Shown: piece after piece, positions 25,710 through 32,260 of the stretch | Layout of the letters: every line of letters starts with the position of its first letter | Numbering within the stretch: position 1 is the first letter of the stretch | Assembly (NCBI GenBank): GCA_904502155.1 | Contig: CAJGDV010000002.1 | Location: 1 to 37,763, forward strand | DNA length: 37,763 bases | Direction: 5' to 3' | DNA from: an uncultured Bacilli bacterium | GTDB taxonomy: Bacteria > Bacillota_I > Bacilli_A > RF39 > UBA660 | Program-made: the position numbers and the translations under genes | Notes under the pieces: model-generated | What the model was told of the DNA's origin: nothing | The model's database searches: none | What the model saw: the letters and a program-made list of their open reading frames with translations, nothing else

Positions 25710-26285
25710 CTATTTATTTGCTCTTGCTCTTCTTTTTTCTTCTTCCGATTCTAAAAGTGTTGCTATAATTTCAGTAGCTATAATTACCATTAAAGGTAAT
25801 ATAACACATAATAACATTCCTAATTTAGATGAAATAGTTTTATATACAAACGATAATATATTTGCTTTATATACTACTTTTCCATATAATTGTTTTTCAT
25901 TTACAATTGGATCTTGAACTAAATTAGCAATTCCTTTAGTGTGAAATAATAATTCACCAGTTTCATTTTTTTCAATATTTATAACTTCATGAGTTACAAT
26001 TTTTCCATTAAAGTTACCTTCAGCCCCTAAATAACTAACTGTATCACCAATTTCTATTGTTTCTGGATCAACGTCTTTTGATATAAGCACATCACCAATA
26101 TTATATTTTGGTTCCATACTTCCTGTAACTACAGTAAATAATCTATAGTTTAAAAGTGCCATTTTATTATCTGTAAATCTTTGTAAGCATACTGCTAATA
26201 CAAAACATGCTAATGCAATAACAAGTAATGTATTTAAAACACCTTTTACTAGATTAAATATTTTTTTAAATTTTCTTTTTTTCAT
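25710..26285 (-). CDS. sipW: SipW-type (ER/archaeal-type, S26B) signal peptidase I, compact form (191 aa)
   Basis: It has an N-terminal TM segment, the catalytic Ser box VVTGSMEPKYNIGDVLIS, the His box IVTHEV and the box-E-like TKGIANLVQDP (canonical form TKGDNN..D). A C-terminal TM segment is followed by a short charged tail (ESEEEKRRARANK). Confidence 0.8.
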   Translation of the reverse strand: MKKRKFKKIFNLVKGVLNTLLVIALACFVLAVCLQRFTDNKMALLNYRLFTVVTGSMEPKYNIGDVLISKDVDPETIEIGDTVSYLGAEGNFNGKIVTHEVINIEKNETGELLFHTKGIANLVQDPIVNEKQLYGKVVYKANILSFVYKTISSKLGMLLCVILPLMVIIATEIIATLLESEEEKRRARANK

Positions 26286-26291
26286 ACTACT

Positions 26292-27422
26292 CTACAAATA
26301 ATCTTGTGTCCTTTCTATATATTCATCCATTGCATCTCTAAATTTATTTTTAACGTCTTTTTGACCAATAGATTCTTTATTTTTCATAGCTTCAATTTCT
26401 TTAGAGAATAGTTGTAAAAGTTCTTCATCTGTAATTTTAATTCCTAGTTTAAATAATAATGATACTATTCTTCTAATTTCTTGTGTTATTAAAACGCCAG
26501 CTGTTTTTTTAAGATTTTCTTTTTGCTCTGATTTCTTTTTACTAATACAATTTAATGTTAAATAATCAATCATGAATGAATGATTTAATAAATCTCTAAT
26601 AATATCATCGCCATCAGATTCTACTCCTTCTTCTGGTTCAGCATCACTCATATCATATTTTGAAAGATATACCCATAACTTCATTGCAACTTGGAAATTA
26701 GGATTTTTAAGTATTACGTTTGTCTTAGTAATTGGAGGTTTTACAAATGCTGCACGTTCTTTTTTTAGACCTGTACAAAATTCACTTCTTCTCCAAATTG
26801 ACATATATTTTTTGATTTTTTCAATTCGAGGTAAGATTTCTTCGATTTGTTTTCTAAATTTTTCTGCCCCTTCTCCTTGAAGATCTTCGATGGCATTAAT
26901 TTTAAATTCAATTCCAAATCTACCTGCATTACTATTTGATTTCCCACTATACTCTAGTGTTTTTTCATTTTTAATTTCAAAGTTTTCTAACTCTTCAATT
27001 CTTTGTCTAACAAATCTTTCTAGTTTATCTAGTAAAGTATATGCTACACGATTTTCGTATGTATTGAAGGTGTCTATCCCTCTAATATTAAGTAATTTAG
27101 AGGGAATAACATCTCCAGTCTTTTCATCTACTCTATCAATATAAAATGTATGTCTTGATAAATCTTTAACTGTTTCTACAGTTGTTTTTTTTGCTTTTTC
27201 AATTTTTTCTACATTAGCTTCTGTAATTAAGGCTAGTTTAGGATTTCTTACAATATTATCTAAATATGGTAAAGCATCTTCAACTATTTGTACCCATTCA
27301 AAATCTAATGTATCTCCTGATAAAACCGAATCAAAATGCATTTCACTTTCGATTTTACTCATAAATGCTTCACATCTAGCATTAACATCTTTATCTAATA
27401 TTTCGCTTAAAATTTTTGTCAT
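26292..27422 (-). CDS. McrC N-terminal-like (DUF2357-like) protein with no recognisable PD-(D/E)xK nuclease domain (376 aa)
   Basis: It lies 16 nt downstream of the McrB-like gene. The stretch W..IVEDALPYLDNIVRNPKLALITEANVEKIEKAKKTTVETVKDLSRHT....IDTFNTYENRVAYTLLDKL matches my recollection of the N-terminal region of McrC-like/DUF2357 proteins (P..L......v.......rh......DT.ENRF). The C-terminal half is helical and charged, with no D...(D/E)xK pattern that I can see. Confidence 0.5.
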   Translation of the reverse strand: MTKILSEILDKDVNARCEAFMSKIESEMHFDSVLSGDTLDFEWVQIVEDALPYLDNIVRNPKLALITEANVEKIEKAKKTTVETVKDLSRHTFYIDRVDEKTGDVIPSKLLNIRGIDTFNTYENRVAYTLLDKLERFVRQRIEELENFEIKNEKTLEYSGKSNSNAGRFGIEFKINAIEDLQGEGAEKFRKQIEEILPRIEKIKKYMSIWRRSEFCTGLKKERAAFVKPPITKTNVILKNPNFQVAMKLWVYLSKYDMSDAEPEEGVESDGDDIIRDLLNHSFMIDYLTLNCISKKKSEQKENLKKTAGVLITQEIRRIVSLLFKLGIKITDEELLQLFSKEIEAMKNKESIGQKDVKNKFRDAMDEYIERTQDYL

Positions 27423-27438
27423 ATGTTGTTACCACTTT

Positions 27439-31256: not shown

Positions 31257-31274
31257 CCAATTATAAGAAGAAAA

Positions 31275-31297
31275 AAAAAGACCTTTTATAGGTCTTT
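31275..31297 (-). terminator. Rho-independent terminator separating the two operons of the accessory locus
   Basis: The minus strand reads AAAGACC-UAUAAA-GGUCUUU followed by UUUUUUUUCUUC. Confidence 0.8.
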
Positions 31298-31300
31298 AAA

Positions 31301-32260
31301 TTATAAATCGTCAGATAAGATTTTCTCGATATCGTCATTTAATTTATCGATATCAAAATCATCGTCTTCATCTTCATCACTTTCAGCTAAAGCTTCTTTT
31401 CTTGCTTTTTCAAGTTCTCTATCTAATAATGACATTTCATCATCATCTTCAACAACATGTTTTTTACGAGGTCTTTCCTCTTCCTCGTCTTCTTCAGCAA
31501 CACGTTTTTTGCGAGGTTTTTCTTCTTCCTCATCTTCTTCAATTAATCTTCTTTTACGAGGTTTTTCTTCTTCCTCATCTTCTTCGATTAATCTTCTTTT
31601 ATGAGGTCTTTCAGCTTCATCATCTTCATCTTCAATAATTCGTTTTTTACGAGGTCTTTCTTCTTCTTCCTCGTCTTCTTCAATCACTTTTTTCTTACGA
31701 GGTCTTTCTTCTTCCTCATCTTCTTCTTCGTCTTCATCATCTTCATCACCATATTTAATTTCAACAATTAATGAATAGATTTGAGAAATAAAAATAAAGA
31801 ATATTGGAAGAACAATTACAAATAAGAATCCCCAACGATTTAAGATTATAGATAGAATGTCGCCGATTTTTGGAATAATTTTATCAGCTGTACCGATAAC
31901 AAATTCCATAGAATAATATTCACCATTTTCATATGAAACAGCACTTTCTTCGATAAATACTTCTTCAATAATACCAACATTTACGCTTACAGCTCCGCCT
32001 GTTTCAAGTTTATATGTAAATATTTCATCTCCAACATTAATTCGACTTATCTTTTTGTTTTTAACAATTACTAAGTCACCTTTTTTGTACTTAGCATTTG
32101 ATAAATCTTCTTTTATTAATAAGAAACTATTTTCATTAATCTCTGCAACCCCAAACTTATTATAGTTTAATACAAATACAGTCATTGCAATTGCAAAAGT
32201 AAAGAAGATAATACCTAAAATGCTAAGAATAATATTTTTTATTAGTCTTAATATTTTCAT
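31301..32260 (-). CDS. Degenerate SipW-like pseudo-peptidase with a cytoplasmic polyampholyte repeat tail (319 aa)
   Basis: I place the start at ATG 32260 (MKILRLIKN), after a GGTGA RBS. The topology and spacing match the other two SipW paralogues: TM, ...NENSFLLIKEDLSNAKYKKGDLVIVK..., TM. The His box reads IFTYKL, with Tyr in place of His, and there is no GDxN box. The C-terminal tail carries six 15-16-aa repeats, (E/D)7-8 followed by [RK]P[RH]K[KR][KRH]. Confidence 0.65.
   Translation of the reverse strand: MKILRLIKNIILSILGIIFFTFAIAMTVFVLNYNKFGVAEINENSFLLIKEDLSNAKYKKGDLVIVKNKKISRINVGDEIFTYKLETGGAVSVNVGIIEEVFIEESAVSYENGEYYSMEFVIGTADKIIPKIGDILSIILNRWGFLFVIVLPIFFIFISQIYSLIVEIKYGDEDDEDEEEDEEEERPRKKKVIEEDEEEEERPRKKRIIEDEDDEAERPHKRRLIEEDEEEEKPRKRRLIEEDEEEEKPRKKRVAEEDEEEERPRKKHVVEDDDEMSLLDRELEKARKEALAESDEDEDDDFDIDKLNDDIEKILSDDL
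31445..31735 (-). repeat. Six in-frame tandem repeats with a period of 45-48 bp, encoding alternating poly-acidic and RPRKKR-like basic blocks
   Basis: The repeat landmark (a/g)(c/t)gagg recurs at 31466, 31511, 31556, 31601, 31649 and 31697. Confidence 0.85.

Follow-up and report, generated by a model that had tools for sequence, protein, structure and literature searches.

Why would a bacterium keep, within one operon, a signal peptidase homologue without catalytic residues next to copies that have them? The question is raised by a stretch of 37,763 nucleotides from an uncultured Bacilli bacterium (contig CAJGDV010000002.1, hereafter the window), in which three open reading frames (ORFs), here called A, B and C, encode paralogues of the archaeal and endoplasmic reticulum (ER)-type signal peptidase (SipW/Sec11, S26B). 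An earlier note on this DNA had seen in them a graded loss of catalytic boxes together with a graded expansion of cytoplasmic tails, and had suggested that a second, signalling function of SipW was moved here into dedicated pseudo-peptidase scaffolds or signal transducers. Three real paralogues do lie at the sites given, but the gradient is not a trait of the family. We consider the anatomy of the paralogues described below highly probable, and we lean towards reading the operon as a multi-paralogue peptidase assembly for a TasA-like fibre, in which C would be a non-catalytic partner like streptococcal SipA.

Catalytic residues and conservation of A, B and C

The three ORFs, all on the minus strand, were confirmed at the coordinates first given for them (Table 1), and the motifs cited for them are all visible in the translations: TNSM, THRV and TKGDANNSKDD in B, TGSMEP, THEV and TKGIAN in A, and GDLVIVK and FTYKL in C. 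Two boundaries need adjusting. The ORF of B is present at 29001-31196, but position 31196 is an ATG three codons upstream of the start chosen by the gene caller (31187), and the length of 334 aa given for C is that of a TTG-extended ORF; orthologues begin at an ATG, which gives 319 aa. A and B are members of TIGR02228 (NCBIfam, archaeal/ER-type signal peptidase I), scoring 78 and 69.9 bits against a cutoff of 51.85 bits, and C is a homologue of S26B but not a member of the enzyme family. None of the three reaches the cutoff of the SipW equivalog NF046067 (190 bits; A scores 65.1 bits, and B and C are not listed), so that "SipW-type" is used here as a class label and does not mean orthology.

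In A, the Asp of box E had been described as lost to Ile. We aligned A to human SEC11A/SEC11C (E ~3e-5), which places TGSMEP on SGSMEP, THEV on VHRV and TKGIANLVQD on TKGDNNAVDD. By this alignment, S56, H99 and D125 of A match S56, H96 and D122 of SEC11A, and D125 lies seven residues past the box-E Gly, the same spacing as that of D122 in SEC11A. Cryo-electron microscopy and mutagenesis of the human signal peptidase complex (SPC) identified Ser56-His96-Asp122 as the catalytic triad (Liaci et al., 10.1101/2020.11.11.378711). S56, H99 and D125 are invariant in 50 of 50 orthologues; a scan of species-representative genomes had found 116 loci that encode a relative, and 80 of these were fetched.

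The residue that is replaced in A is the Asp of the GD motif, which corresponds to Asp116 of SEC11A. In the human enzyme, this Asp is turned towards the core, where it is salt-bridged to Arg97, and its mutants are affected in stability while reasonable activity is left (10.1101/2020.11.11.378711). The equivalent position 119 of A (Ile in the window) is L, I, T or R in 50 orthologues and never D, and at residue 100, directly after the His (Glu in the window), 44 of 50 have Q or E in place of Arg. Judged by these alignments, neither partner of the structural Asp-Arg salt bridge is left in A, and its catalytic triad is intact. The Asp-to-Ile change is therefore not a catalytic loss, and since its triad is complete, A is no step towards inactivation.

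The residues of B are similarly constant. Of 56 orthologues, all have H96, G110, D111 and D117 and 55 have R97; S60 occurs in each of the 54 in which its column is not a gap. The families of B and A align with each other in hhalign with a probability of 99.3 % (E 1e-20). With complete Ser-His-Asp triads in their sequences, A and B are both predicted to be active.

C belongs to a large family of its own. A word-indexed search with its first 175 residues found 206 homologues, and in an exhaustive profile search of 1.84 billion cluster representatives (50 % identity), 890 had E<=1e-3, among them 350 with E<=1e-10 and 67 with E<=1e-30. In the best 150 C-type representatives, the C model outscored the A and B models in every case, and none of these 150 carries a Ser-box and a His-box motif together. 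Across 78 orthologues, no Ser or His is invariant in the ectodomain of C. The column of Ser56 of A corresponds to position 53 of C, which is I, V, L or F in the 78 orthologues, and the column of His99 corresponds to G96, which is Gly in all of them. The TKGxxN segment of box E falls in a gap in the ectodomain alignment made with hhalign. The His box of C had been placed at FTYKL; this is wrong, because FTY aligns to the strand after the second GD, and the His column is that of G96.

The descent of C from S26 was assessed by profile and by structure. Over the full N-domain, the C and A families align in hhalign with a probability of 95.9 % (E 5e-9). Because transmembrane (TM) helices may match by composition, the comparison was repeated with the ectodomain only, and a broad C set (209 sequences) aligned to the merged A and B families over 101 columns with a probability of 96.7 % (E 3.9e-10). 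An AlphaFold2 (AF2) model of residues 1-175, built on a 90-row alignment, had a mean predicted local distance difference test score (pLDDT) of 89. In a Foldseek search with this model, human SEC11A and SEC11C came out on top (prob 0.99, 152-158 aligned columns), and SipA of Streptococcus pyogenes (4N31) was found at rank 9. A marginal match of C to urease-beta among the PDB sequences (E 0.0077) was taken as chance.

Neither a catalytic dyad or triad at shifted positions nor a non-S26 fold was found in C, and the fold is S26-like. The earlier description of C as a dedicated pseudo-peptidase thus stands: the protein is conserved, S26-derived and without the triad in 78 orthologues and 150 representatives. 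As far as alignments and models can tell, C is an ancient and conserved pseudo-peptidase derived from S26, in which the Ser was replaced by I, V or L and the His by Gly, and in which box E was deleted. A decaying pseudogene was rejected, because C is conserved in 350 clusters and in no fewer than 78 species loci.

Selection acts on C in other places than on A and B. We calculated the mean pairwise identity of each region in the 46 species in which A, B and C are all present. For the first TM helix (TM1), the values were 0.42 (A), 0.53 (B) and 0.53 (C), and for the ectodomain 0.62, 0.61 and 0.458. The second TM helix (TM2) gave 0.53 in both A and B, and TM2 together with the EIKYG motif gave 0.775 in C, where the juxtamembrane stretch past TM1 had a value of 0.65. 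Most of the residues that are invariant in the C family lie in the helix WGFLFxxLVPxFLIFIYExYxLxxEIKYG. Constraint in C is inverted compared to A and B: it is strongest in TM2 and in EIKYG at the cytoplasmic face, and not in the tail. This pattern argues for a function of C via contacts in or at the membrane.

Cytoplasmic tails and the module of B

In the window, the tails after TM2 are 13 aa (A), 148 aa (C) and 563 aa (B) long, as had been stated. The graded expansion read from these lengths does not hold among the orthologues, in which the tail of A has a median of 11 aa, that of C a median of 5 aa, and that of B is always 479-646 aa long. A C tail of more than 25 aa was found in four of 78 orthologues, and the 148 aa of the window are the longest of the 78. 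Since the conserved long tail belongs to the canonical paralogue B, the loss of catalysis and the gain of a tail do not go in parallel here.

The C tail of the window contains a tandem repeat, for which Tandem Repeats Finder reported 5.8 copies with a period of 45 at 31460-31729; the units read RPRKKRxIEEDEEEE. Among proteins whose N-domains share at least 97 % identity, the number of repeat units ranges from 2 to 6, and the tail always ends in ...NDDIEKILSDDL. The long C tail is a recent repeat expansion. Being missing in almost all orthologues and variable in repeat number, it cannot be the conserved function of C. The last ~20 residues (...FDIDKLNDDIEKILSDDL) are constant and common to the closest species (locus L015), as if a short docking motif were carried on a spacer of variable length. 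A kinship between this end (DFDIDKLNDDIEKILSDDL) and a family of acidic proteins of 48-60 aa, described below, was considered and rejected, as the hidden Markov model (HMM) of the small-protein family gives C tails no higher scores than 1000 shuffles.

The tail of B is of a different kind. An acidic linker of 137-301 aa among the orthologues (mean pairwise identity 0.29) is followed by a helical domain (0.33) and a C-terminal alpha/beta domain (0.45), in which LxHNIxFSKVYSDYI[IV]DKTYxEGI[VI]AEDK is the most conserved motif. Searches for homologues of the C-terminal part with a single sequence and with a 37-sequence profile yielded 14 and 9 proteins, swamped by K/E/N-rich candidates, so that the AF2 alignment of the domain had only 15 rows. 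The model of the last 349 residues had a pLDDT of 86.6 and a predicted TM-score (pTM) of 0.83. Foldseek placed the EAL domain of FimX (4ag0_B) on top (E 6e-4, prob 1.0), and 24 of the 30 top matches were EAL domains. The canonical catalytic residues of EAL domains (E of EAL, N, E, DD, K, E) are not conserved, as judged by eye in the family alignment. According to the model, the C-terminal domain of B is a degenerate EAL-like domain with a fold typical of second-messenger receptors. A GGDEF motif was not found in ~491,000 residues of flanking ORFs, a weak negative that is uninformative on the rest of the genomes.

In other lineages, the module sits on another paralogue. Four of the 150 C-type representatives (P0166, P0170, P0206 and P0208; 616-741 aa) consist of a dead C-type N-domain fused to the helical and EAL-like module, which the module HMM recognizes with E 2e-28 to 9e-40. 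In the fusion loci, the gene of this C-type::module fusion is located directly upstream of the McrB-like gene. Besides the fusion, loci L099 and L101 encode a short C-type copy together with an active B-type paralogue whose tail is short (246-251 aa). L099 has an A-type copy as well and thus four paralogues; the contig of L101 stops within the McrB-like gene. At L099 1048-12408, L101 3182-7900 and L096 9805-11874, we observed the module on a second dead C-type copy (681-741 aa) in permuted gene order. The order in L101 is C, short B, a 380-aa gene, C-type::module and McrB-like; by inference, a single deletion in an order of this type could yield the arrangement of the window. As the module is found on a dead paralogue elsewhere, it does not have to belong to the same protein as an active site, and it is mainly for this reason that we infer that the paralogues act together.

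The operon, its secreted proteins and its hosts

A, B and C are part of an operon of ~15 genes that shows strict synteny in uncultured low-GC gut Bacilli (Table 1). The order is the 1211-aa protein, p190, p300, C, B, the McrB-like AAA+ protein, the DUF2357 protein, A and p409, followed by p220 on the opposite strand, and it recurs across the fetched species loci. In 57 of 64 informative loci, the ten core genes keep this order, with B directly after C. The other seven are split (L034, L059, L072, L076, L084, L086 and L089): here, 1211-p190-p300-C is followed by unrelated genes, which replace B, McrB-like, DUF2357, A and p409, and the four loci inspected show housekeeping genes such as PheRS at this place. 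Two neighbourhoods are constant, since A is always beside p409 (directly downstream) and C always directly after p300.

Table 1. Positions in the window of the peptidase paralogues, their parts and the neighbouring genes.
Feature	Coordinates	Strand	Remarks
A, 191 aa	25710..26285	-	TM1, ectodomain, TM2, 13-aa tail; S56, H99, D125 kept
B, 728 aa by gene caller	29001..31187	-	TTG-extended ORF reaches 31256
B residues 1-165, canonical SipW/Sec11-type peptidase domain, TM1 + TM2	30693..31187	-	TIGR02228 69.9 bits
B residues 166-379, acidic low-complexity cytoplasmic linker	30051..30692	-	38 % D/E
B residues 380-530, all-helical cytoplasmic domain (predicted)	29598..30050	-	AF2 helices, model residues 1-151
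B residues 531-728 + stop, predicted degenerate EAL-like alpha/beta domain	29001..29597	-	Foldseek
C, 319 aa	31301..32260	-	orthologues start at ATG
C residues 1-171: TM1, reduced S26-like ectodomain, amphipathic helix, TM2, EIKYG	31748..32260	-	
C tail, 148 aa, lineage-specific polyampholyte ending in conserved ...NDDIEKILSDDL	31301..31747	-	45-bp (15-aa) tandem repeat
p300, secreted, SipW-class signal, candidate substrate	32309..33211	-	junction T-x-A-K-Y; always upstream of C
p190, small secreted, weakly TasA/camelysin-like, candidate major fibre subunit	33198..33770	-	junction G-I-T-Y-S-x-F
1211-aa secreted protein, candidate adhesin/tip	33785..37420	-	NF047446 (OmpL47-type barrel) 42.5 bits; junction P-T-L-A-R; syntenic
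p409, secreted	24462..25691	-	junction SFISxTLAWFAYSG; N-terminus related to u355, u424
p220, divergently transcribed secreted	23789..24451	+	junction TYS(K/R)YV; weak TapA-model match E 0.058
McrB-type AAA+ protein, 520 aa, N-terminal TM + coiled coil	27439..29001	-	start overlaps B stop
DUF2357 (McrC-N-like) protein, 376 aa	26292..27422	-	PF09823 29.7 bits

The operon extends past the window, as seen on the same contig (L095 54-5979, upstream of window position 37420). The extension encodes two secreted paralogues, u424 (424 aa) and u355 (355 aa), with the junction STYAW[FL], and a 48-aa acidic protein that belongs to a conserved family of 48-60 aa with the consensus VDFDLSxLSLxELIxVY. It further encodes two mutually paralogous cytoplasmic proteins of ~540 aa, which had no family match.

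Seven secreted proteins share a signal junction of the form T-[YLF]-[AS]-x-[FY] at the end of the h-region (STYAWF, VTLAWF, GITYSxF, TYSRYV, PTLAR). These junctions resemble the GTWA↓AF junction of TasA (arrow, cleavage). The N-termini fall into two related groups, p190/p300/p220 and p409/u355/u424, and the first 90 residues of p300 are homologous to p190 (hhalign prob 95.7 %). When members of the p190 family were compared with the camelysin/TasA family PF12389 (Peptidase_M73), 11 of 28 matched, with a best E of 8e-4 and all under the gathering score; the copy in the window did not match. A p190 profile found no TasA match among the PDB sequences. In the 1211-aa protein, the OmpL47-type barrel domain comprises residues 672-744, and the N-terminal region has repeated GGL[IV]-type motifs that by eye are suggestive of a beta-helix. 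In other lineages, the gene of p220 is part of the cluster and shares the strand of its neighbours. A scan of cluster proteins detected no sortase domain.

Between B and A lies a pair of genes related to McrBC. The AAA+ protein matches McrB of E. coli (6hz4) over residues 206-390 (E 9.7e-5) and has a Walker A motif (GISGTGKT) and a DEMNIA motif; in place of the DNA-binding N-domain of McrB, its N-terminus is a TM helix with a coiled coil. The AAA+ protein is syntenic in 52 loci and the DUF2357 protein in 53 species loci. The conserved residues of the DUF2357 protein do not show the PD-(D/E)xK nuclease pattern. A McrBC-like pair has apparently been recruited into a secretion-type operon, which is unusual.

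The metagenome contig that holds the window (ENA ERZ27234997, k141_2802058, 52 kb) has a G+C content of ~23 %, and the locus is surrounded by housekeeping genes typical of Bacillota (AddAB, PcrA, SerRS, MurI and a SpoVIF homologue). All relatives are uncultured metagenome-assembled genomes (MAGs) from animal guts, rumen and digesters, which are labelled Bacilli, Mollicutes, Tenericutes or Mycoplasmatota, in addition to a few evidently mislabelled bins. The SpoVIF-family gene (22404-22646, minus strand) beside the cluster hints that sporulation genes are retained in this lineage, many of whose MAGs bear the label Mollicutes or Tenericutes. At 7369-8583 on the minus strand, the window also encodes an extremely acidic protein of 404 aa with LLEELPKNDDLL-type repeats, which appears unrelated to the cluster; a long antisense ORF over the same interval is probably a compositional artefact.

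Proposed mechanism, alternatives and known systems

We propose the following mechanism tentatively, as the combination of cleavage, partnership of C and coupling through the module has at best about an even chance of being right. The operon would build a surface fibre that is TasA-like and of the donor-strand type. A and B would cleave the seven precursors encoded in the operon at the TasA-like T-x-A↓x-F junction, which would free or expose an N-terminal donor strand. In TasA, the fibre polymerises through a donor strand formed by residues 28-38, directly past the SipW cleavage site (PMC9674648). C would be a membrane-embedded, non-catalytic partner of the active paralogues and, similar to SipA, could serve as a holdase for precursors or signal peptides or as a scaffold. 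The module of B may couple the peptidase assembly to the membrane-anchored McrB-like AAA+ protein and its DUF2357 partner, and possibly to a nucleotide ligand; its role would then resemble that of the EAL domain of FimX in type IV pili, with a link to either the AAA+ pair or a nucleotide signal. Co-conservation and domain swapping suggest that the paralogues would work as a hetero-oligomer. The most far-reaching version of this proposal is a hetero-oligomeric signal peptidase complex of two active and one or two dead S26B proteins, coupled via the EAL-like module to a McrB-type motor, in which the cytoplasm would gate cleavage and polymerisation by nucleotide hydrolysis and/or a second messenger; this version we regard as unlikely.

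Several observations weigh against this proposal. The S26 link of C is remote: TIGR02228 scores C at 14.4 bits (E 0.025), far under the cutoff, and the narrow orthologue set aligned by its ectodomain over 27 columns to A (E 1.3e-5) and not significantly to B. The Foldseek TM-scores of the C model to SEC11A and SEC11C are modest (0.40-0.46), and SEC11 was not found among the PDB sequences with either the single C sequence or the 90-sequence profile. The seven split loci show that the gene of C can be separate from those of the active paralogues. That the substrates are TasA-like is suggested by Pfam matches under the threshold and by a short motif. For the module of B, the EAL assignment comes from one AF2 model built on 15 sequences, with TM-scores of 0.36-0.48, and no match to EAL (PF00563) was found at sequence level, either with Pfam on 37 family members or in two profile searches of PDB sequences. 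The AAA+ protein matches the PADLOC candidate-defence family PDC-M26A (E 1.4e-35), which leaves room for another role of part of the cluster. Finally, all the organisms are uncultured, and the system is described here from sequences and models.

Among the alternatives, the one that survives best is that C acts as a decoy or anchor-keeper, which shields the junctions of the 1211-aa protein, p190 and p300 from cleavage, so that these subunits stay tethered to the membrane and form the base of the fibre or time the onset of polymerisation. The position of C directly after the genes of these three proteins, also in the seven loci without adjacent B and A, would fit such a role, as would an S26-like ectodomain that is kept while its catalytic residues are replaced, and the fact that in TasA it is cleavage that makes the donor strand. 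However, the groove of a decoy would lie in the ectodomain, which is the least conserved part of C (0.458), and TM2 is the most conserved part (0.775), a pattern that fits helix-helix contacts in the membrane better. We judge the decoy role improbable, somewhat more so than the motor-coupled complex.

The suggestion of the earlier note, that the peptidase-independent signalling of the SipW tail was split off into dedicated proteins and that the polyampholyte tail of C and the tail of B are the signalling parts, fared only partly well. The second role of SipW reportedly maps to its C-terminal tail. That SipW has a second, regulatory role is confirmed in the literature, at least in the passage of PMC13082335 that cites Terra et al. 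2012 for it. B does have a large conserved module with a predicted receptor-like EAL fold, C is a dedicated pseudo-peptidase, and in the sub-lineage of the window the C tail ends in a conserved short motif (...EKILSDDL). But the C tail is nearly always missing (median 5 aa, longer than 25 aa in 4 of 78) and its repeat number varies between strains, A is not on the way to inactivation, and the long conserved tail belongs to the intact B and not to the pseudo-peptidase. Homology between the tails described here and that of SipW, which is short and C-terminal, was neither found nor to be expected, and the likeness is one of analogy only. Signalling split off from a SipW tail is quite improbable as an explanation of the locus.

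Still less probable, to the point of being very doubtful, is that the cluster, or a core of the McrB-like and DUF2357 proteins with the peptidases, is an anti-phage or conflict system. Apart from the match to PDC-M26A, the AAA+ protein resembles E. coli McrB, and DUF2357 is a McrC-type N-domain. Against this role, the pair holds a fixed operon position in more than 50 species-level genomes beside housekeeping genes, unlike a mobile defence island, and the cluster is dominated by seven secreted proteins, including the adhesin-like one of 1211 aa. Moreover, a TM anchor replaces the DNA-binding N-domain, and the DUF2357 protein has neither a PADLOC match nor a conserved nuclease motif. For the pair itself, insertion as a defence island was rejected on synteny, the TM anchor and the missing nuclease motif, despite the PADLOC match. 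Finally, a few polar residues of C are highly conserved in close orthologues (N34, K60, D62, N112 and S141), which would favour a protease with non-canonical residues at shifted positions. This reading is hardly credible. K60 and D62 belong to the structural GD strand and are replaced (e.g. by GS or GQ) in the broader-family members inspected, the Ser and His boxes occur together in none of the 150 clusters, and C has lost box E and has Gly throughout the His column.

We return to the reading of the locus as a multi-paralogue peptidase assembly, which shares features with five known systems. It resembles McrBC in the McrB-type AAA+ core and its neighbour with a McrC-type DUF2357 N-domain, and differs from it in the TM anchor and coiled coil in place of a DNA-binding domain, in the lack of a nuclease motif and in the fixed position in a secretion-type operon. 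In the literature searched, we found no description of a McrB-type AAA+ protein in a secretion-type operon.

The EAL domain of FimX is a catalytically inactive receptor of cyclic di-GMP (c-di-GMP), which controls the assembly of type IV pili via an ATPase. The C-terminal domain of B is similar to FimX and LapD in its predicted fold and in the canonical catalytic residues that, by eye, are apparently absent, and it adjoins an AAA+ protein. In contrast to FimX and LapD, it gives no EAL signal at sequence level. Neither a SipW-EAL fusion nor any other signal peptidase fused to an EAL-like domain was described in the literature searched.

Compared with SipW itself, A and B have the same two-TM topology and Ser-His(-Asp) chemistry, and they adjoin candidate substrates with a TasA-like G-T-x-A-x-F junction. 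The differences are that three to four paralogues are found per operon instead of one, that one of them is dead and one carries a cytoplasmic module of ~560 aa, that A has neither the GD Asp nor the Arg after the His, and that A and B are not orthologues of SipW. Among the titles listed in a literature search, none described inactive SipW paralogues. To our knowledge, the dead signal peptidase homologues described so far as helping to build pili all belong to the P-type branch (SipA/LepA). The locus described here reveals a large and old family of dead copies of the ER/SipW type, with 350 clusters at 50 % identity (E<=1e-10), in which selection appears to have shifted away from the catalytic ectodomain and onto a transmembrane helix. 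Its hosts are abundant uncultured Bacilli of gut and rumen.

SipA of S. pyogenes (LepA; PDB 4N31) is a dead signal peptidase that has kept its peptide-binding cleft, has Asp for the Ser and Gly for the Lys, and is essential for pilus polymerisation (PMC4049620). Like SipA, C is predicted to be a fold-keeping pseudo-peptidase in an operon for a putative surface filament, with nucleophile and base replaced. SipA comes from the P-type (Ser-Lys) branch and works with sortases, whereas C comes from the ER/SipW-type branch and groups with A and B. C also has a second TM helix, which is its most conserved part, and its cluster showed no sortase domain.

The eukaryotic SPC (SEC11A/C with SPCS1-3) combines a catalytic S26B subunit with non-catalytic membrane subunits, and these subunits shape a transmembrane window (10.1101/2020.11.11.378711). 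Homologues of SPCS1-3 were not found here; the non-catalytic partner would itself be derived from S26, and co-conservation and domain swapping are what suggests a putative hetero-oligomer. Should the paralogues indeed assemble with one another, the result would be a bacterial equivalent of this eukaryotic machinery, and the cytoplasm would have a direct route to time the release of TasA-like subunits for polymerisation.

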